Positions 8,386 to 18,050 are shown, numbered from the stretch's first letter. The stretch is DNA of 64,000 nt from Candidatus Bathyarchaeia archaeon (GCA_038882655.1 JAVZNT010000003.1:29388-93387), one strand, 5' to 3'. Program-made: numbers and translations. Notes: generated from the sequence alone by a model not told the origin.

Positions 8386-8664
8386 ATGCCCAGACCATCT
8401 CAACGTGCACGCAGCCGGAAACGTGTTTTCAGGACTCTGCCTGGAGGACGCACAAGCATGCATCTTAAACGCGAAGTTCCAAGAGGTGACAGTTGCGCCA
8501 GTTGCGGCAAACCTTTAGCCGGAATTCCCCATCTTCTCCCCCATGAGGCGACGAAGCTTAACAGGACGAAGAGGAGAATTTCAAGAATTTATGGTGGGCA
8601 TCTCTGCCACAACTGCTTGAAAGTAGCCCTTAAACATGCGGCACGAACACTTAGTGTTGTATGA
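8386..8664 (+). CDS. rpl34e: 50S ribosomal protein eL34
   Basis: MPRP..R.RS.KR...TLPGG, CxxC, R.YGG.LC..C. Confidence 0.93.
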   Translation: MPRPSQRARSRKRVFRTLPGGRTSMHLKREVPRGDSCASCGKPLAGIPHLLPHEATKLNRTKRRISRIYGGHLCHNCLKVALKHAARTLSVV

Positions 8665-8674
8665 GGTTCTTGGC

Positions 8675-9265
8675 ATGGCGAAAGAACCATTGATTATCTG
8701 CGTTTGTGGGATGGCTGGAAGCGGAAAAAGCACTTTAGCAAAAAAACTGGCCGAAAAGTACGGACTTAAATATTATTCTGGCGGTGATGCCCTAAAAGCT
8801 TTGGCTTTAGAGAGAGGTCATAAGCCAGCGGGGCACGGTTGGTGGGAAAGCAAAGAAGGCTTATCATTCCTAGAGAAAAGGAAGAAAAACCCCCAATTTG
8901 ACAAGGCTGTTGACCAGAAACTCTTGGAAATTGCAAAACAGGGAAACGTAATTCTAGACAGTTGGACAATGCCGTGGCTTCTCGAAGGCGGGTTCAAAAT
9001 ATGGCTTGAAGCATCGCCAAGAAAAAGGGCGGAAAGAGTAGCAAAAAGAGACAACATGACCGTGAAAGAGGCATTAAACGCCTTGAGAAAGAAGGAGGAG
9101 AAGACAAAATCAATCTATGAGAAGCTTTACGGCTTCAAATTAGGCGAAGATTTCACCCCATTCCACATGATATTGGACACCGATAATTTATCAGCTGAAG
9201 AAGTTTTTCAAGCCCTAAGTTTAGTTTTAGACAAGCTAGTTTTTGGTAAACAGAACTTCGCGTAA
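8675..9265 (+). CDS. cmk: Cytidylate kinase (archaeal type)
   Basis: P-loop GMAGSGKST, KIWL.A....RAERVAKRD; position after rpl34e. Confidence 0.88.
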   Translation: MAKEPLIICVCGMAGSGKSTLAKKLAEKYGLKYYSGGDALKALALERGHKPAGHGWWESKEGLSFLEKRKKNPQFDKAVDQKLLEIAKQGNVILDSWTMPWLLEGGFKIWLEASPRKRAERVAKRDNMTVKEALNALRKKEEKTKSIYEKLYGFKLGEDFTPFHMILDTDNLSAEEVFQALSLVLDKLVFGKQNFA

Positions 9266-9336
9266 ATTTTTTAAAGCATTAGAGAAACTTCTATAATATT
9301 CCTTTAAAATAAAATCCACATCTGAATCTAAAACCA

Positions 9337-9723
9337 ATGCGGAGATTGGAGAACTTGAAAATGCTAATTTTCTGCTCCGCAATTGTTACAGCCTTAATCC
9401 TCACAATTCTTCACGGGCTTCTTCCAATGACTTGGGAAACGGCTCAAACACTGCTTACATTTAACCTTCTATTTCTGCTCATTCTCATGCCATTAAAAGG
9501 GTCTATTATGAGAAAAATAGCAATACTTTTGTTAGGTAATATATTAAGCTTCATTTGGAGCACCCTTTTCTATCTGCTTGTTCACTTCGCTGTTGGGCAA
9601 ATGGATGGAGTGTTTAACACCTTATATGTTGTTTTGAGTCCACTGTTGAATGTTTTGTGGGTTGTAACATTTTGGTCTACAAGTCTGACCTTTTTGGCTG
9701 AACCGGGAAAAGGAAAGCGGTGA
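9337..9723 (+). CDS. Hypothetical 4-TM membrane protein
   Basis: Four hydrophobic segments; stop overlaps the start of the GT2 gene (GTGA). Confidence 0.7.
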   Translation: MRRLENLKMLIFCSAIVTALILTILHGLLPMTWETAQTLLTFNLLFLLILMPLKGSIMRKIAILLLGNILSFIWSTLFYLLVHFAVGQMDGVFNTLYVVLSPLLNVLWVVTFWSTSLTFLAEPGKGKR

Positions 9724-11042
9724 AAAACTTGATAACTGAAATTTTAGAGGTCTTGCTTTTTCTGTCGACGATCTTGATGGCGGCTTATCTTGTTCGCCAT
9801 TACATCTTCACCATAACGGTTGCCAAGAAATCAAAAATAAATGGGAGGAGCCTTGTTGCAGCCGAAACCGCGGTCTTATCTTACCAACCAAAAGTGTCAA
9901 TTTTGATACCTGCTCACAACGAAGAACTTGTCATTGGGCGGCTTCTCCAAAGAATGACGGAGCTGACATATCCAAAGGACAAGTTGCAAGTAGTAGTGAT
10001 AGATGATGCCTCGACGGATAAAACTGGAATTATAGCAGAACAGTATTCGAGGCATCACCCCTACATATTTGTTGTGAGAAGACATAGAGAGGAAGGTGGG
10101 CGTGGAAAGGCTTCCGCCCTAAACGCCGGAATGAAGTGGGCTAATGGCGAGATAATTCTGTGTTTTGACGCTGACTATTACCCGCAAAGAGACATTATAG
10201 AAAAACTTGTGAAAGAGTTTAAAGACCCAAAAGTGGGAGCAGTTCAAGGAAGGGTTGTTGTGCTAAACGAACCGCAAAACATCGTCACAAGGCTTGTTGC
10301 CCTTGAAAGGATAGGCGGATACCGCGTTGATCAAGAAGCCCGCGACAGCCTCGGCTTGATAACGCAGTTCGGCGGGACTGTTGGAGGATTTAGGCGTACC
10401 CTTTTAGAATCTCTTGGCGGATGGGACGAAAATATTCTAGCGGAGGACACTGATTTGACTTTCCGCGTTTATCTCGCTGGTTATAAGGTTAAGTATGTTA
10501 GTGATGCAGAGTGCTATGAAGAGGCTGTTGAAAATTGGCGAGCCTATTGGAGGCAGCGATACAGATGGGCTAAAGGACATATGCAATGTGCCTTCAAGCA
10601 TTTGCTAAAAGTTCTGAAAAGCAAAAAGCTTGGACTTAAAGAGAAAATTGATGGCTTATTCTTGCTCGGTGTCTATTTTCTCCCCATTATTGTCCTTTTC
10701 TCATGGATAATTGGGGTGTCGCTAATGTTTCTGAAATTTTCGCGGCATTTCTCTCCATTTTGGGCAACATCCTCCATTGCCCTCTACAGTTCCATCGGAA
10801 ACTTCGCTCCATTTTATGAGATTGGAGTTGGCGCCTTTCTTGATGGCAGAAAGAGGGCACAGTGGCTTATCCCCCTACTTCTCTTCACCCTCTTTTACAA
10901 TATCCCTATATGCACTAAAGCTCTTCTCGACATTTTTATTTCAAAAATTACAAGGAAAAACAATAACCATTGGGTTAAAACCGAACATTCAGGCAATGGA
11001 AACTGTTATATTATAAACTGCGCTAAAACCTTAGAAAGGTAG
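9720..11042 (+). CDS. Processive GT2 glycosyltransferase (cellulose synthase/PgaC-like)
   Basis: IPAHNEE, DDASTD, GKASALN, FDAD, AEDTD, QRYRW; N- and C-terminal TM helices. Confidence 0.92.
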   Translation: MKNLITEILEVLLFLSTILMAAYLVRHYIFTITVAKKSKINGRSLVAAETAVLSYQPKVSILIPAHNEELVIGRLLQRMTELTYPKDKLQVVVIDDASTDKTGIIAEQYSRHHPYIFVVRRHREEGGRGKASALNAGMKWANGEIILCFDADYYPQRDIIEKLVKEFKDPKVGAVQGRVVVLNEPQNIVTRLVALERIGGYRVDQEARDSLGLITQFGGTVGGFRRTLLESLGGWDENILAEDTDLTFRVYLAGYKVKYVSDAECYEEAVENWRAYWRQRYRWAKGHMQCAFKHLLKVLKSKKLGLKEKIDGLFLLGVYFLPIIVLFSWIIGVSLMFLKFSRHFSPFWATSSIALYSSIGNFAPFYEIGVGAFLDGRKRAQWLIPLLLFTLFYNIPICTKALLDIFISKITRKNNNHWVKTEHSGNGNCYIINCAKTLER

Positions 11043-11372: not shown

Positions 11373-12776
11373 ATGTTCTATATAGAATGCACAGTGTGCG
11401 GTGCAAAGTTTGAAGCCTATCCACCACAATACAGCTGCAAGAAATGTAGCGGCCTCCTAGAATACAGATGTGATAATGAAACGCTTAAAACCGGAACATT
11501 TGTCGGGCCTTTCACTTTTTGGCGTTACAGGAAGCTTCTGCCAAAGGTCAGAAATGTTGTCTCCATGGGGGAAGGAGGAACCCCACTTATCAAGGCGAGA
11601 AGACTTGCCAAAGGTATTGGGTTAAACAATTTATACTTTAAGGATGAGACGCGAAACCCAACGAATTCTTTTAGGGATAGATGCGCTGCCCTAATTGTTT
11701 CCAACGCTGTTGATTTGAAGTATAAGTCGGTTGCTTGCGCTACAAATGGAAACCTTGGGGCCTCCTTAGCTGCATACTGTGCAAAGTCTGGATTAACATG
11801 CCATGTTGTGGTGCCGAGAAACGTGGATATGGGAAAACTTGCCCAAATGCTGATCTATGACGCCGTAATTGAAGAGTATGGGGAAATAGTGGATGATTCA
11901 CTGAAAAGGGCAGATGAGCTAGCCAAAGAAATGGGCTGGTATCAAGGGTCTGCAGAGTTTAATCCGCTATCAATAGAAGCCCTAAAAACCATTGCCTACG
12001 AAGTTTACGAGCAAATTGGCGTCCCAGACTGGTTGATTGCTTCTATGGGAAGTGGTGGGACGTTATATGCTATTTGGAAAGGGTTTAAGGAGCTTGAAAT
12101 AAGAGGCGAAGTAAAATCCATCCCAAAGATGGTTGGCGTTCAAGCTGAAGGCTGTTCACCAATTGTAAACGCGTATATGCAAAATATTCATGAGCTAACT
12201 CTCAAAACTAAACCTTCAACTCACGCTCTTGCCATCCTCGTTAAAAGGCCGTGGTATGGTAAATTAGCCATCAAAGCAATCAAAGAATCTATAGGAATGG
12301 CTATATCAGTTTCAGACGAAGAAATTTTCTCTGCGGAACAGGAAATTGCAAAACTTGAGGGTGTCTTCGCTGAACCAGCAAGCGCAGCAACATACGGGGC
12401 ACTTAAGAAACTTGTAAACCAACATGTAATTGGCAAAAAGGACAAGATTGTATGCTTGATAACTGGAAGCGGACTTAAAGCAACAGACATCCTCCAAATT
12501 TTAACTAAGAGAAAGAAAACGGCTATTGTTGGATTAGAGCTTAGTACAAAAGAGAAAATATTGAGGATCCTATGTGAAAATGATGCTTACGGCTATGAAT
12601 TATGGAAAAAACTCGGAAAAGTGATGACGAGGGCAGCAATTTACCAACATTTAAGCGAATTATCAAAAAACGGGTTGGTCTCAAGTTATGAGAAAGATGG
12701 GCGAAAATATTTCAAAATAACAAAACGTGGAATTAAAGCTATTCATGCATTCGAGGATCTAAAACTTTTGTTATAG
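11373..12776 (+). CDS. Threonine-synthase-like (fold-type II PLP) protein lacking the Schiff-base lysine, fused to a C-terminal PadR-like winged helix; putative regulator
   Basis: N-terminal CxxC..CxxC, SMGEGGTPL, NPTNSFRDR (K to R), GSGG loop, EPASAA, ITGSGLK; C-terminal YGYELWKKL...IYQHLSELSKNGLV...GRKYFKIT. Confidence 0.88.
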   Translation: MFYIECTVCGAKFEAYPPQYSCKKCSGLLEYRCDNETLKTGTFVGPFTFWRYRKLLPKVRNVVSMGEGGTPLIKARRLAKGIGLNNLYFKDETRNPTNSFRDRCAALIVSNAVDLKYKSVACATNGNLGASLAAYCAKSGLTCHVVVPRNVDMGKLAQMLIYDAVIEEYGEIVDDSLKRADELAKEMGWYQGSAEFNPLSIEALKTIAYEVYEQIGVPDWLIASMGSGGTLYAIWKGFKELEIRGEVKSIPKMVGVQAEGCSPIVNAYMQNIHELTLKTKPSTHALAILVKRPWYGKLAIKAIKESIGMAISVSDEEIFSAEQEIAKLEGVFAEPASAATYGALKKLVNQHVIGKKDKIVCLITGSGLKATDILQILTKRKKTAIVGLELSTKEKILRILCENDAYGYELWKKLGKVMTRAAIYQHLSELSKNGLVSSYEKDGRKYFKITKRGIKAIHAFEDLKLLL

Positions 12777-12801
12777 TTTCCTATTTCATAAAGGGCATAA
12801 A

Positions 12802-12828
12802 TTTAAAATAGTATAGCTACAGCTATAC
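12802..12828 (+). promoter_or_regulatory. TATA-like box (TTTAAAAT) followed by perfect palindrome GTATAGCT-AC-AGCTATAC, a candidate repressor operator
   Basis: 8-bp perfect inverted repeat at 12811-12828, ending 19 bp before the ECF S-component ATG. Confidence 0.7.
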
Positions 12829-12847
12829 CATTACACGAGGCTTTAAA

Positions 12848-13597
12848 ATGTCATTAAAGTCTGCGAACTTAACAAGGCAGCTAAGCATCACGGCTGTTTT
12901 CACAGCTCTTGTTTGCATAGCAACAATAAGCTTCACTGTTTATGTGCCAAGCACAAAAGGCTATTTTAACATAGGGGAAACAATGGTTTACACTGCAGCC
13001 TTACTTTTCGGGCCTTTTGTAGGAGCTTTTGCTGGTGGTGTTGGTTCTATGCTCGCGGATGTTTTCTTAGGTTATTACTATTATGCACCAGCAACTTTAG
13101 TAATTAAAGCCTCGGAAGGTCTCCTTGTTGGTTTTATCAGTCGGAAAGGGCAAGTTTTTGCTAGGTCCTATGTCAAGCGTGAGTGGAGAATATTTACAAT
13201 TGAAATAGGCATACTCGTAGGGATGCTCATCAGTCTTATTGGTTTCCTTTACTATAGCGGGCTTGTCGAACTCTATTCAGGCATAGTTTCCATAGAAAAC
13301 CCAGCATCAACAGTTTTCGTCCCTGTTGAGTTTTGGTTTGGAATAGGGATTCTTACAGTCATTCTAGTAACAGTTTTAGCCTTAACATCTGAACCAGATT
13401 TCAGTTTAACAATGATTGCATGCATCTTTGGAGGGTTGCTAATGGTTTTCGGATACTTCCTCTACGAACAGCTTTTCCTTGGGGTGTTTGCTTTCGCAGA
13501 AGTTCCCATAAACATTGGACAAATGACAGTAGGCCTAATTATTGCAGCACCCATTGTGCGAATCGCGAAGCAAACCTTGCCACAACTTAAAAGCTAA
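12848..13597 (+). CDS. ECF transporter S-component (HmpT/PdxU2-like) with an internal two-TM insertion
   Basis: TALVCIAT..., GYFNIGE.MVY.AALLFGP..GA.AGGVGS.LAD...GY..YAP.TLVIK..EG, E.P.NIGQ. Confidence 0.85.
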   Translation: MSLKSANLTRQLSITAVFTALVCIATISFTVYVPSTKGYFNIGETMVYTAALLFGPFVGAFAGGVGSMLADVFLGYYYYAPATLVIKASEGLLVGFISRKGQVFARSYVKREWRIFTIEIGILVGMLISLIGFLYYSGLVELYSGIVSIENPASTVFVPVEFWFGIGILTVILVTVLALTSEPDFSLTMIACIFGGLLMVFGYFLYEQLFLGVFAFAEVPINIGQMTVGLIIAAPIVRIAKQTLPQLKS

Positions 13598-13628
13598 CCT
13601 ATTAAAATATTTGCTTGAGGCATTGAAA

Positions 13629-14654
13629 TTGAAACTGCCATTTGGAAAAGTTCCCATTGAAATACTAAAAGAGGTTATCTTTAAAAATCTTGGATTCAAA
13701 CGCAGAGAGGTTATCCTTGGACCATCAGCTGGCTACGATGGCGCGGTTATAGATTTGGGCGAGGAATCTCTGGTGGCTTCAATGGACCCCATTACCGGTG
13801 CTATTGAGCGTATCGGCTGGCTTGCAGTAAATATCAATGCAAATGACATCGCCACTTTTGGTGTAGAGCCAGCTTTTTTCCTTTCATGCATATTGCTTCC
13901 AGAAGACACAGACCGAAAAACAATTGAAGTTATATGCCTTCAAATGAATGATGCTGCAAACGATTTAAAAATGGCTATTATTGGGGGGCACTGTGAAGTA
14001 ACGCCCGGGCTCGCTAATCCTGTCGTTATAGGATGCGCTTTGGGAATAACAGAAAAGGGGCGTTATGTCACAGCCGGTGGAGCTAAGCCTGGGAACAAAC
14101 TTATTTTAACAAAAAGTGCTGGCATAGAAGGAACAGCCATACTGGCAACTGAACGCTATGATTTGCTCCTAAGGTTAGGCGCCGACGGTAAGCTGTTAAA
14201 GTCTGCGCAGAAGTTTTTTGACAAAATAAGCGTCGTCAAAGATGGCTTAACAGCATTCAAAACCGGCGGAGTTAAGGCAATGCATGACCCCACAGAAGGC
14301 GGCGTTCTAGGGGGCATCCATGAGATGGCAGATGCCTCAAACCTCGGCGTTAAAGTCTTTGAAGAGGAAATTCCAGTGGCAAAAGAAACGGCGGAAATTT
14401 GCAGGCTTTTAGGGATAGACCCATTGCAGCTGATAAGTTCTGGAGCTATGCTTATTGCAGCAAAACAGGAATACATGGAACTTATCATCGAGAAATTAAG
14501 GAAGGAGAAGATTGAAGCGTCCGTAATTGGCGAGTTTTTGAGCGATTCGAAAAAACGGGTAATGGTTCGCCAAGATAAACGTGAAACAAACCTTCTGCGT
14601 CCGGGATGCGACCACTTATGGTTGGCATTAACAAGTCAAAAAGGAGTAAAGTAA
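13629..14654 (+). CDS. AIR-synthase (PurM/ThiL/HypE/SelD fold) family ATP-dependent enzyme
   Basis: GKVP, G.DGAV, DPITG, NANDIA, IIGGHCE, MHDPTEGG..G..HE; TTG start at 13623/13629. Confidence 0.88.
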   Translation: MKLPFGKVPIEILKEVIFKNLGFKRREVILGPSAGYDGAVIDLGEESLVASMDPITGAIERIGWLAVNINANDIATFGVEPAFFLSCILLPEDTDRKTIEVICLQMNDAANDLKMAIIGGHCEVTPGLANPVVIGCALGITEKGRYVTAGGAKPGNKLILTKSAGIEGTAILATERYDLLLRLGADGKLLKSAQKFFDKISVVKDGLTAFKTGGVKAMHDPTEGGVLGGIHEMADASNLGVKVFEEEIPVAKETAEICRLLGIDPLQLISSGAMLIAAKQEYMELIIEKLRKEKIEASVIGEFLSDSKKRVMVRQDKRETNLLRPGCDHLWLALTSQKGVK

Positions 14655-14693: not shown

Positions 14694-15674
14694 ATGAAAA
14701 TGTTTCAAAACCTAAATATGGAAAGAGTTTTTATAACCGGGGGCGCCGGTTTCATTGGAAGTCACCTAGTTGACAGACTATGCGAAATGGGCGAAGACGT
14801 TATTGTATTTGACAACTTAAGCTCTGGCACCGTTGAAAATGTCAAAAAATGGTTGAACATGCCTAACTTTAAATTTATACGTGGTGATTTACTATCTCTG
14901 AAAGAGATTATTAAATCCATAGAAGGATGCGACACCGTTTTTCATCTCGCTGCCAACCCAGAAGTTCGTGTTGGTTCGGAAAACCCTAAAATCCATTATG
15001 AACAAAACGTGCTTGCAACGTTTAATCTGCTTGAAGTAATCCGCAAAGTTGGGCGTGTCAAAACCCTAATTTTCACTTCTTCTTCAACGGTTTATGGAGA
15101 TGCAATAGCAATACCAACTCCAGAGGATTATGCCCCACTAAAGCCCATCTCAGCTTACGGCGCTTCTAAGCTAGCTGCTGAAGCCCTCATATCAGCATAC
15201 GCCAACACATACGGCTTTCAAGCCATAATATATAGACTGGCAAACATTGTAGGCCAGAGGTCGCAGCATGGAGTCATACATGATTTCATAAAAAAACTCA
15301 AAGAAAATCCGAAAAAGCTTGAGATACTTGGCGATGGCACTCAAACCAAATCCTATTTACATGTTGAAGACTGTATAGACGCCATTCTGACAGGCTTATA
15401 TAAGAGCAATGAAAGGGTAGGCATATTCAATGTGGGATCTGAGGACCAAGTAGTCGTAGAGGAGATAGCAGACATTGTTTGCGCAAAGATGGGGTTAAAA
15501 AGTGTGCAATATGTTTTTACAGGCGGTGTCGATGGGGGGAGAGGCTGGAAAGGCGACGTAAGGGTCATGCTTTTAAACATTGAAAAACTTAAAAAATTAG
15601 GGTGGAAGCCAAAACTGAAAAGCCGTCAAGCAGTTGAGAGAGCGGTTTCAGAAATATTGCATGCTACACGTTAG
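14694..15674 (+). CDS. NAD-dependent epimerase/dehydratase (UDP-glucose 4-epimerase-like)
   Basis: TGGAGFIGSH, FHLAANP, SSSTVYG, YGASK. Confidence 0.92.
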   Translation: MKMFQNLNMERVFITGGAGFIGSHLVDRLCEMGEDVIVFDNLSSGTVENVKKWLNMPNFKFIRGDLLSLKEIIKSIEGCDTVFHLAANPEVRVGSENPKIHYEQNVLATFNLLEVIRKVGRVKTLIFTSSSTVYGDAIAIPTPEDYAPLKPISAYGASKLAAEALISAYANTYGFQAIIYRLANIVGQRSQHGVIHDFIKKLKENPKKLEILGDGTQTKSYLHVEDCIDAILTGLYKSNERVGIFNVGSEDQVVVEEIADIVCAKMGLKSVQYVFTGGVDGGRGWKGDVRVMLLNIEKLKKLGWKPKLKSRQAVERAVSEILHATR

Positions 15675-16705
15675 TGTCTTTTTAAAAAGAATCTCACGCT
15701 TCGCCACTTGTCCTTAACTATTTCAATGTTGCCAGCAACGCTTCCATGAATCGAGTAAAAAATGTAACAAAGATATGCGCATCTTTCACACTCACTATAT
15801 TTTTTTCTAAGGACTTCAAATCTTTCGCTTTCCCAAAGACTGGGCAATTCGAAAATTGAAGCAACCGGTTCGTGAAGATGGCAGCCGGCAACTTCACCTC
15901 GATGATTTATTACAAAAAAATTCCGCAGCGCACCACATTTCCAGATTCTCTCATTACTCAGATAAAGGTGCTTAACAGCCTCCAAAACTTTTGTTGTAAT
16001 CAAAATATTGTCATTCTCTCGCTTCATTTCAAGAAGTGAGTCGCAAACCTTAACCATGGCGTCTCTATCCCTTATTAAGAAAGCATCTTCCGCTTTTCCT
16101 ATCTTAAAAAGTGAGTTTGAATGGTCGGGCGCGTCATAGGAATATAGGGAATACCAGACCGGTATTCCTTTGTCTAAGAAATATTTAGTGAAATCAACAA
16201 TCTCGTAAAGATTTGCTTGCGAAATAGTAGGCGTCACGCTTACATTAATTCCTTCCATGTGAAGTCTTTCAACAGCTTCCATAGCTTTTTTCCACGCCCC
16301 CTTAACCCCCCTTATGCGGTCGTTTTTATCCGGGTTTAGGCTGTCTATTGAAATCGCAACAAAATTTGTGTGTCTTAACGCGCCAATGTTTTTAACCGCC
16401 AAGCTACCATTATCATAAACTGTTACAAGGAAGTAACGTGACGCATACTCAATTATTTCGTCGATGTCGGCCCTCAAGAGTGGGTTACCACCAGATATCA
16501 AAACCTCCACAACGCCAAGTTTTCGAAGGATATCCAACCCGCGTTTGACCTTTTCAGTTGATAATTCCTTGTTGTCCTGCTCCCGCCAGACATTACACCC
16601 TCTACAACGGTAATTACATTTTCTCGTAACCATCCATTGCACATGATAAGGCCTATTAGGCGCCAAAACCCGCGAAACAATGCTCAAGGCTTTTCTAATG
16701 GACAT
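15671..16705 (-). CDS. Radical SAM protein with C-terminal SPASM/twitch-like cysteines
   Basis: CNYRCRGC, SGGNPLLR, C-terminal C...G.V..C...CxxCxxxC. Confidence 0.9.
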   Translation of the reverse strand: MSIRKALSIVSRVLAPNRPYHVQWMVTRKCNYRCRGCNVWREQDNKELSTEKVKRGLDILRKLGVVEVLISGGNPLLRADIDEIIEYASRYFLVTVYDNGSLAVKNIGALRHTNFVAISIDSLNPDKNDRIRGVKGAWKKAMEAVERLHMEGINVSVTPTISQANLYEIVDFTKYFLDKGIPVWYSLYSYDAPDHSNSLFKIGKAEDAFLIRDRDAMVKVCDSLLEMKRENDNILITTKVLEAVKHLYLSNERIWKCGALRNFFVINHRGEVAGCHLHEPVASIFELPSLWESERFEVLRKKYSECERCAYLCYIFYSIHGSVAGNIEIVKDKWRSVRFFLKRH

Positions 16706-16919
16706 TCACCGGCACCATTTCAAACGATTCTCGGTTTTAATGCCCAGTACATCTTTTTAAAGATATAAACTGTACTTTTATGAATAACTTATTTTAGACT
16801 TTACTTTAGTATTTAGTGGTTGTTAAGACCCTGCGAACTTCGTGAATGTGAAGTCGGATTACTTATGCCACGTTGAAGGTTAAAATCATCAGCTTATACA
16901 AAAATTAAAGCTCAAAACG

Positions 16920-18050
16920 TTAAGGCAGCGACTTTTTAAATAGTTGATATATTCCTCCCAAGAGGAATGCCAAGGCTCTTGCGATATCTATTATTGGATA
17001 AAGGATTATTCTTCGGTATTTTTTATCTCTTCTCTTGATGGTCTGATAGCCATAAAAAGCCATAAGCCCAAAAAGTGGAAGCACAAGCGTGACTAGGAGA
17101 ATTATTTGAGATGTGAAATAACCAGTTAATAGAATGTGTATTACTAATGCCAAGACTGTTAAACTCCATGTGAGAAAGCTAAGTACGCAGACCAGAAGCC
17201 ATTTTGAAAATACGCTCTTAATTCCGAATTTTTTCAACATTAAACCTAAACCTCTTCCATAATTGAAATTTTGCTTCAAAAGCCCCCTTAACGTTGGTCT
17301 ATGCTTATGCATCACTAAAACCTCCGGGTCCAAAACCATCTTGTATCCTTCTCTACAGATTCTTTCCACAAGTTCAACTTCGTCAAAACCATACTTAATG
17401 TCTTCATCAAACAATCCAACTTTGTTCAAGACATCACGCTTCAGTCCCATGTTGCAGCCGGCCGGATATTTTTGTGGAGGCTTAATGGAGTCTAATGTTT
17501 CTCTTCTTCTAAAAATTCTCATAACCGGGATGAAACTTTCATCAGAATATTTGGATAAAAAATTATCATAATACCTGAGAACATTTCCCCCAACGCATCC
17601 GACATGCAAATCTCGAAGGTTGTCGACCATTTTATTTAGCCAGTTCTTTGGTACAATACAATCAGCATCCGTGAAGGCAAGAATTTCTCCAGTACTATTT
17701 TTTATGCCGGTATTTCTTGCTGCATTTAATCCCGGGCGTTCCTCTAATATGAGTTTAACTGGATACTGTAAAACTATTTCCCTAGTATTATCTGTGGAAT
17801 TTCCATCTACCACAATAATTTCCAGACAATTCTTTTCGTAGTTGATTTGCATGAGAGAATCCAAAAGCTCTCTTATATGTGCGGCTCCATTTTTAACAGG
17901 AACGATCAATGTAACTTTTGGGTAATATTTACTCTCTTCACGCAATGGTTGCGCCTTCATTAAATTGGTTTCCTTCTGCAGAATTGTTTTTAAATTTACC
18001 GCGTGCTTGAACAACTGTTCATTTTGAATTTTGCCAGAACTGTTAAACAT
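16920..18050 (-). CDS. GT2 glycosyltransferase with C-terminal TM helices (start probably near 17960)
   Basis: VPVKN, VDGNSTD, AARNTG, FTDAD, GCNM, DEVEL. Confidence 0.9.
   Translation of the reverse strand: MFNSSGKIQNEQLFKHAVNLKTILQKETNLMKAQPLREESKYYPKVTLIVPVKNGAAHIRELLDSLMQINYEKNCLEIIVVDGNSTDNTREIVLQYPVKLILEERPGLNAARNTGIKNSTGEILAFTDADCIVPKNWLNKMVDNLRDLHVGCVGGNVLRYYDNFLSKYSDESFIPVMRIFRRRETLDSIKPPQKYPAGCNMGLKRDVLNKVGLFDEDIKYGFDEVELVERICREGYKMVLDPEVLVMHKHRPTLRGLLKQNFNYGRGLGLMLKKFGIKSVFSKWLLVCVLSFLTWSLTVLALVIHILLTGYFTSQIILLVTLVLPLFGLMAFYGYQTIKRRDKKYRRIILYPIIDIARALAFLLGGIYQLFKKSLP

Follow-up and report, generated by a model that had tools for sequence, protein, structure and literature searches.

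A candidate vitamin B6 sensing and salvage regulon in a Bathyarchaeon, headed by a lysine-less threonine synthase paralogue

Introduction

How does an archaeon without recognisable genes for making or salvaging pyridoxal 5'-phosphate (PLP) obtain, activate and sense vitamin B6? PLP is essential, yet among 201 sampled Bathyarchaeia (120 of high quality, whose counts follow in brackets) PdxS was found in 29 genomes (21) and PdxJ in 2 (2), and about half of the genomes, including nearly all of the family studied here, are also without a ribokinase-type kinase. These archaea are abundant in sediments and hot springs. We analyzed a stretch of 64,000 nucleotides from Candidatus Bathyarchaeia archaeon (GCA_038882655.1 JAVZNT010000003.1:29388-93387; hereafter the window), in which positions 11373-14654 hold four elements, all on the + strand: an open reading frame (ORF) for a threonine synthase (ThrC)-like protein with a winged helix-turn-helix (wHTH), an inverted repeat, a gene for the S-component of an energy-coupling factor (ECF) transporter, and a gene of the AIRS family. 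An initial annotation had proposed that they form a B6 sensing and salvage regulon, and ORF calls, domain searches and repeat analysis recovered the four co-oriented elements at their positions.

Here we argue that the locus is a local regulon through which a B6-auxotrophic Bathyarchaeon takes up and salvages the vitamin, a reading of its sequence and surroundings to which we assign a probability of about 0.6. That it comprises a B6-responsive regulator together with a B6 transporter appears likely. According to a survey of the PLP pathway, alternative B6 kinases and most B6 transporters are still to be found (PMC9997740). The locus supplies testable candidates for a B6 sensor, importer and kinase, plus a defined operator, and is relevant to predicting which uncultured archaea are auxotrophic for vitamins or cross-fed, as well as to designing media for their growth. 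The host genome comprises 1.02 Mb in 27 contigs and is 84% complete; phyletic counts refer to the 201 genomes and, for the host family, to a subset of 27 unless another number is given.

A threonine synthase paralogue without its Schiff-base lysine

The first ORF (11373-12776, + strand) encodes a protein of 467 residues, hereafter the regulator, in which a Cys4 ribbon is followed by a fold-type II PLP-enzyme domain and then by a PadR-type wHTH. In a Pfam profile search, residues 63-365 matched PF00291 (PALP; E 7e-77) and residues 396-458 matched PF03551 (PadR; E 3e-12, 46.6 bits against a cut-off of 27). The score with TIGR00260 (209.9 bits, cut-off 167.1) indicates ThrC-level similarity. The NCBIfam model NF004170 (PRK05638, full-length 'threonine synthase', 442 positions) aligned with the regulator over positions 2-441, wHTH part included, at 396.8 bits and did not reach its cut-off of 421, which was surpassed in none of the control genomes. 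An AlphaFold2 (AF2) model of the regulator (pLDDT 91.4) displays a ThrC body, a disordered linker (residues 370-389) and, at residues 392-466 (12546-12770, + strand), the helices and beta hairpin of the wHTH. The top Foldseek matches of this model were ThrC structures, with target-normalised TM values of 0.82-0.86.

The regulator has the fold of threonine synthases, 34-37% identity to the solved ThrCs, the cofactor-phosphate loop and the N-terminal Cys4 ribbon, whose cysteines (C6, C9, C22 and C25) are conserved. It differs from them in that the Schiff-base lysine is replaced and a wHTH is added, and a genuine ThrC is encoded elsewhere in the genome (a short form of 369 residues, with NPTGSFKDR). 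Indeed, the Schiff-base motif of the regulator reads NPTNSFRDR, with Arg101 (codon AGG, 11673-11675, + strand) in the alignment column of the lysine; this position is occupied in the 120 nearest homologues (65-100% identity) by Arg in 117 cases, Ser in two, Met in one and Lys in none. The glycine loop MGSGGT is retained at residues 225-230, as part of MGSGGTLY (12045-12068, + strand). Fold-type II enzymes hold the cofactor phosphate with a loop at this position; among 76 fusion proteins, G226 and G228 show little or no variation. The arginine, the GSGG loop and the C-terminal PadR-like wHTH had been read correctly in the initial annotation, and the absence of lysine proved to be conserved.

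The same picture was obtained with an alignment of 238 ThrC relatives, taken from cluster representatives and fetched loci. The lysine is kept in all 73 short ThrC forms, and all 128 full-length Lys-less forms carry a C-terminal wHTH (with Arg at the lysine position in 57, and I, L, M, V or another residue in 71), two further Arg forms having no wHTH-aligned region. Full-length Lys-less forms being found only among wHTH fusions, lysine loss appears to be confined to the fusion family; 34 proteins combine the lysine with a wHTH. Whether the residue is Lys, Arg or hydrophobic, every group retains the glycine loop, TGSGLK, EPAS and the Cys4 ribbon. As judged from these features, the regulator appears to be a dead ThrC paralogue and not a housekeeping enzyme, and a cofactor pocket that is otherwise maintained would be as expected of a ligand sensor. 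An Arg-type fusion of 441 residues, annotated as threonine synthase, is also recorded in the cultivated Thermococcus chitonophagus (P0137), which may be a tractable host.

A conserved inverted repeat at the putative S-component promoter

The 71-nt spacer between the regulator and S-component genes houses an inverted repeat, GTATAGCT-AC-AGCTATAC (12811-12828), with 8-nt arms and a 2-nt centre that is not self-complementary. The repeat can be extended to 12-nt arms (12807-12818 and 12821-12832) with 92% complementarity and one mismatch, which gives the putative operator AATAGTATAGCT-AC-AGCTATACCATT (12807-12832). It begins at the end of an A/T-rich TATA-like box, ATAAATTTAAAA (12797-12808, + strand), presumably that of the S-component promoter, and 28 nt separate its centre from the S-component ATG; an A/T box is also seen ahead of the repeat in the aligned orthologous intergenic regions. 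The initial annotation had described a perfect palindrome right after a TATA-like box: the position stands, and the perfect 18-mer does not, the repeat being 8+2+8 with a spacer, or 12+2+12. Because the repeat spans the region from the TATA-like box to the expected start site, it occupies the position of an archaeal repressor.

Alignment of the window with 16 genome loci yielded the family consensus ATAGTATAGYT-NN-ARCTATACTAT, located straight after the A/T box, and this alignment persists where the downstream membrane gene is a different family member. We also assembled 55 regulator-to-S-component intergenic regions (41 Arg-type and 14 Lys-type, 11.1 kb in total). The core ATAGTT-NN-AACTAT is present in 42 of them at ≤1 mismatch and in 49 at ≤2 mismatches, with variant palindromes instead of the core in the remaining six; the palindrome is thus conserved upstream of orthologous S-component genes, as anticipated. 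As a background, the whole 1.02-Mb host genome contains seven core sites at ≤1 mismatch, five within ORFs and none at a recognisable promoter, and a single occurrence of the 22-nt consensus at ≤3 mismatches. Additional operator sites in the host genome were rejected, the near-matches all lying in ORFs or away from promoters; no pdxS or pdxT that could bear the operator was found in this genome. No core site was found upstream of the regulator gene (0/39 regions at ≤2 mismatches), which led us to reject autoregulation, or control of a divergent thrC, through the same operator. In three loci (L048, L049 and L051) an insertion of ~0.7 kb stands between the regulator on one side and the operator with the S-component on the other, the two genes being about 700 nt apart.

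An HmpT/PdxU2-like S-component and its genetic linkage

The S-component gene (12848-13597, + strand) encodes a 249-residue member of the PF07155/COG4720 family (PF07155, 101.8 bits, cut-off 26.7), in agreement with the initial annotation. Among solved structures it has a single relative, chain S of 4HZU (4hzu_S), HmpT/PdxU2 of Lactobacillus brevis, with E 7e-11 over residues 10-149 of 249. This chain was first named HmpT, corresponds to PdxU2 and had pyridoxamine identified as a substrate (PMC4860826); PdxU and PdxU2/HmpT are both assigned to COG4720/PF07155 (PMC9997740). Besides belonging to the same Pfam family, the window protein has the Glu of the 4HZU_S pocket (E41), and N140..Q143 is present as INIGQ, outside the confident part of the alignment. 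A relative of standard length (175 residues, from L036) matches 4hzu_S at E 1e-18 and keeps Glu/Asp41 and the N..Q motif. As had been expected, the sole solved relative of the S-component is HmpT/PdxU2 and not RibU.

EcfT was not found in the host assembly. Since 39 of 40 other host-family genomes have it, the energising module of the host is probably just unassembled.

Of 42 genome loci in which the Arg-type regulator gene is complete and its downstream flank available, 41 have a PF07155-family gene next to it, 27 of them with AIRS after that, which bears out the predicted co-occurrence of the three genes. Among 80 metagenome loci found via AIRS, 56 have an S-component-family gene beside it and 19 the regulator; short contigs are frequent among the others. 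Contig pieces span both the regulator/S-component and the S-component/AIRS junctions, which does not demonstrate a transcript; two of the runs bear a metatranscriptomic label and are flagged as probably DNA.

Relatives of the regulator with a hydrophobic residue (I, L, M or V) at the lysine position are about 490-500 residues long. Their genes are divergent from pdxS-pdxT in all five f20 loci with enough flank (L037, L038, L040, L041 and L042) and from an S-component gene in six other loci (L036, L043, L087, L091, L095 and L096); the other six of the 17 loci have neither inside the fetched flank. Most of the pdxS-linked and S-component-linked intergenic regions of this type have in common ATATATAAG-N7-CCYATATATRG, which may partly correspond to two divergent TATA boxes. 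The computational predictions of the B6 reading (lysine absence, linkage, operator and S-component relative) all came out in its favour and support the view that the locus concerns vitamin B6.

AIRS1 and its thiamine-linked paralogue

The last gene of the locus (13629-14654, + strand) encodes AIRS1, a PurM-superfamily protein of 341 residues with AIRS_N (PF00586) and AIRS_C (PF02769) domains and a candidate B6 vitamer kinase. Its start is most likely the TTG at 13629, given that the database copy has 341 residues and that orthologues open with MKLP; this start is 31 bp downstream of the S-component stop (13597), the distance given in the initial annotation. AIRS1 has conserved motifs of the DPxTG, NDxA and DPTEGG types, which we take to be the ATP-binding motifs of the PurM superfamily. 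It misses every curated cut-off: TIGR01379 (ThiL) gave 92.4 bits (cut-off 184; 261 bits for the genuine ThiL on contig C24), TIGR02124 (HypE) 127.4 bits (cut-off 251.6), and the SelD model was likewise below its cut-off. Moreover, a C-terminal Cys, as in the PRIC of HypE, is not conserved among 120 homologues. AIRS1 was therefore rejected as a ThiL or HypE, genuine copies of which exist elsewhere in the genome. The genuine HypE gene lies at C3:25326-26396, ~3 kb before the window start; its product ends in PRIC and scores 370 bits with TIGR02124. This HypE explains the label 'hydrogenase maturation factor' that some sources often give AIRS1 relatives by mistake. A protein atlas search with AIRS1 returned unnamed AIR-synthase clusters only. 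As AIRS1 consists of AIRS_N and AIRS_C, with no Phos_pyr_kin domain (PF08543, ribokinase fold), it would be a non-orthologous replacement, if it is a B6 kinase at all.

The closest paralogue of AIRS1 in the genome is AIRS2 (33% identity, 147 bits), followed by HypE (91 bits) and ThiL (61 bits); by these similarities, AIRS1 and AIRS2 form a subfamily of their own. Outside the window, on host contig C7 (14621-16886; L189:892-3157), AIRS2 is in an operon downstream of ThiT (PF09515, E 7e-49), a thiamine S-component, the gene of a KaiC-like ATPase being located between the two. A hand tally finds AIRS2 (≥47% identity) in 41 of the 201 genomes and ThiC in 54, with no overlap. What is new here is this paralogous PurM-fold gene, which comes after ThiT in 29 of 30 loci and never occurs with ThiC. 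The host genome keeps ThiL, and ThiN, ThiE and TPK were not found in it, a combination that is sensible only if imported thiamine becomes thiamine monophosphate by phosphorylation. AIRS2 is thus a candidate archaeal thiamine kinase feeding ThiL, which would fill the place of the missing thiamine kinase.

AIRS1 and AIRS2 resemble ThiL, HypE, SelD and PurM in their domains and superfamily-type motifs and differ from them in being paired with vitamin S-components. The existence of two sister enzymes, each with a vitamin importer and each where the usual kinase is missing, suggests a family of vitamin-trapping kinases; the non-PdxK kinase proposed in the initial annotation draws its main support from this parallel. 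Even so, we put the assignment of AIRS1 as a B6 vitamer kinase at slightly short of an even chance.

Proposed mechanism and alternatives

We propose that the regulator acts as a one-component sensor, in which the wHTH is joined through a flexible linker to the ThrC-like pocket. A regulator dimer would bind the inverted repeat at the TATA-like box and cover the expected transcription start of the next operon. With a phosphorylated B6 vitamer, PLP or pyridoxamine 5'-phosphate, held non-covalently in the pocket, initiation would be blocked (we infer repression as the sign of regulation); when B6 is scarce, the promoter would be released. The S-component would then import an unphosphorylated B6 vitamer via the shared EcfAA'T module, and AIRS1 would trap it by ATP-dependent phosphorylation, standing in for the missing PdxK/PdxY.

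The B6 supply of the host is consistent with such a regulon. In the host genome (84% complete) we found no PdxS, PdxJ, PF08543 (PdxK/ThiD-type) kinase or PNP oxidase, and in the host family PdxS, PdxJ and PF08543 occur in 3, 0 and 3 of 27 genomes, respectively. PF08543 was matched in 87 (57) of the Bathyarchaeia, mostly by ThiDN-sized ORFs, many of which adjoin thiC. PLP enzymes are nevertheless encoded in genomes without a recognisable B6 kinase.

Several observations weigh against this regulon. Vitamin B6 as the ligand, repression and kinase activity are all deduced from sequence and context. Absences in the host genome are provisional, the assembly being 84% complete, and related genomes are non-independent samples. 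The S-component, which is archaeal and has an extra internal segment of about 70-80 residues compared with the 166-residue solved chain, has Lys in place of the pocket histidine H84 of 4HZU_S, as does the standard-length relative. AIRS at E ≤1e-40 is near-ubiquitous (175/201 genomes), although in seven of these genomes the best hit (1e-45 to 1e-57) may be a paralogue, and AIRS1 is not confined to auxotrophs: it occurs in 21 of the 29 PdxS-positive genomes, against 154 of the 172 PdxS-negative ones, so that a simple anticorrelation between AIRS1 and PdxS is weak (this tally was made by hand from genome lists, six AIRS-negative genomes being deduced from their absence in the lists). Conversely, four high-quality genomes (G019, G046, G070 and G128) have no PdxS, PF08543 or AIRS at E ≤1e-40. 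The link to B6 also draws on one genome (G007) that has AIRS, pdxS and pdxT consecutively on one strand, next to a Rio2 gene, where a sister genus has AIRS beside the S-component; against this, the arrangement was seen in that genome only and in none of the 80 metagenome loci. Finally, we know of no PurM-superfamily member that phosphorylates an alcohol.

The clade of ThrC-wHTH fusions that retain the lysine belongs on the same side of the balance. These proteins are 47-54% identical to the regulator and lie next to the S-component in 14 of 23 Bathyarchaeial loci, 13 of the 14 having the same operator core; the four Asgard Lys-type loci (L021-L023 and L025) follow the same pattern. The regulatory role is therefore not defined by loss of the lysine, and the Lys-less and Lys-retaining clades may have different ligands. 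The initial annotation had pictured a dead PLP enzyme turned regulator: the loss of the lysine is upheld, and the loss as the cause of the regulatory role is not. By our reading of the sequences, the fusion was probably a regulator before it lost the lysine, an event that would have occurred more than once, and the Lys-retaining fusions may act as sensors that bind PLP covalently or as bifunctional trigger enzymes. Two tandem operator copies are often present in the loci of this clade (L070-L086, L097-L102 and L018).

The alternative that survives best, though we consider it unlikely, keeps the B6 regulon and gives AIRS1 a role other than vitamer kinase, namely another ATP-dependent step on an imported B6-related compound or some other part in PLP homeostasis. 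AIRS1 could, for example, activate a carboxylate, lactone or amide form in conjunction with the Amidohydro_2 enzyme (PF04909) of some operons. The known PurM chemistries are the activation of a carbonyl oxygen or the phosphorylation of a phosphate or of selenide, which favours this alternative over an alcohol kinase. PF04909 is indeed encoded between the S-component and AIRS, or beside the regulator, in five loci (L008:8073-8792, L009, L015:5021-5977, L020 and L072) and in 7 of the 80 metagenome loci; de novo PLP synthesis needs no kinase, and AIRS1 is found in PdxS-positive genomes, once directly upstream of pdxS-pdxT. However, the amidohydrolase is present in a minority of loci only, PLP enzymes are encoded where no B6 kinase is recognisable, and the parallel pairing of the S-component with AIRS1 and of ThiT with AIRS2, the latter in genomes that keep ThiL and show no ThiN, ThiE or TPK, fits trapping by phosphorylation. 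Where it joins the module, the amidohydrolase usually accompanies a shorter S-component variant, and it may process a modified vitamer.

It is distinctly improbable, in our view, that the regulator senses a ligand other than B6 (threonine, O-phosphohomoserine or a PLP-amino-acid adduct) and that the S-component and AIRS1 serve another micronutrient. The closest relatives of the sensor are threonine synthases, and five f2 loci (L056, L061, L063, L066 and L067) have a canonical thrC (about 411-421 residues, with the lysine) in divergent orientation to the Arg-type regulator. This could point to threonine metabolism, a further argument against B6, though the operator is absent from these intergenic regions; the divergent pair may instead be a trace of the duplication that produced the regulator. 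A Lys-retaining regulator could also hold PLP covalently and sense an amino acid, as GabR does (PMC5320631). As to the transporter, PF07155 members differ in substrate and the Pfam family name refers to riboflavin, but the RibU equivalog NF010182 scored 22.7 bits with the S-component (cut-off 99) and no RibU chain was among its structure matches at E ≤10. Moreover, no threonine pathway gene is conserved in the operon, and the adjacency of regulator relatives to pdxS-pdxT in five loci, with a motif common to pdxS- and S-component-linked regions, is better accounted for by B6.

The salvage of hydroxymethylpyrimidine (HMP), with a pocket sensing HMP-P and AIRS1, as a ThiL relative, phosphorylating HMP or HMP-P, is very unlikely: the solved S-component was originally called HmpT (PMC4860826), ThiC and ThiD were not found in the host genome and ThiC lies 3-5 kb from AIRS1 in L034-L036, but most family genomes appear unable to use HMP, with ThiD, ThiN and ThiE unseen in most of them (ThiN 11/41, ThiE above cut-off 0/41, PF08543 3/27), AIRS1 is nonetheless in 25-26 of 27, a separate thiamine module (ThiT-AIRS2) exists, the pdxS-pdxT links favour B6, and the S-component and regulator also occur in ThiC-bearing genomes (f2). 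The resemblance in shape between HMP and B6 vitamers is a point for the same alternative.

Relation to known systems

A B6 regulon of the kind favoured here calls for comparison with the MocR/PdxR regulators. This family, the only known PLP-sensing regulators, controls pdxST, pdxK and pdxU in Bacteria and is reported not to be present in Archaea (PMC5320631). It resembles the present system in several ways: a PLP-enzyme-like domain joined to a wHTH as the sensor, a regulator gene that adjoins pdxST and is often divergent from it, regulons with pdxST, a salvage kinase and the PF07155 transporter pdxU (PMC5320631), and operators made of repeated boxes. The architectures are different: in MocR proteins a GntR wHTH at the N-terminus precedes a fold-type I aminotransferase domain, whereas the window regulator has a fold-type II ThrC domain and a C-terminal PadR wHTH, with the lysine lost in most clades; the Pfam search gave no match to an aminotransferase or GntR domain in the regulator. 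The ThrC-wHTH family thus looks like an analogue of MocR/PdxR and not a member.

Other systems are reminiscent of parts of the locus. In archaeal ThiR, a catalytically dead vitamin-pathway enzyme domain serves as the sensor of a vitamin regulon, by the same logic as in the regulator described here. Uptake is tied to phosphorylation in the pairs of Pnu transporters and kinases, and PnuT couples uptake to trapping by a kinase. The window differs from Pnu and ThiR in its transporter class (ECF), its kinase fold (PurM) and its sensor fold (ThrC). A search of open-access papers and bioRxiv found no publication on a ThrC-wHTH or ThrC-PadR fusion, and nothing relevant on pyridoxal auxotrophy in Bathyarchaeota or on a regulator of Thermococcus pdxS.

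The regulator family may illustrate how a dead enzyme is turned to ligand sensing; the Lys-retaining clade would supply living intermediates and shows a possible order of events. More tentatively, and with the chances somewhat against it, the locus may belong to an Archaea-specific B-vitamin toolkit made of other parts than that of Bacteria, in which a widespread family of ThrC-derived, mostly Lys-less PLP-sensing factors, the functional counterpart of PdxR, would control pdxST or a PdxU2-type importer, and in which the PurM-fold kinases AIRS1 and AIRS2 would act on B6, as a non-PdxK kinase, and on thiamine, respectively.

Neighbouring genes

The flanks of the locus (window positions 8636-11042 and 14694-18050) encode a cytidylate-kinase-like protein, two family-2 glycosyltransferases, an NAD-dependent epimerase and a radical-SAM-like ORF. 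The genes directly after AIRS differ among relatives and so fall outside the module. A Rio2-type kinase gene (PF01163 and PF09202) recurs beside AIRS1, the S-component or the regulator in many families (L034-L036, L064 and L070-L102), a neighbourhood that is probably old synteny.

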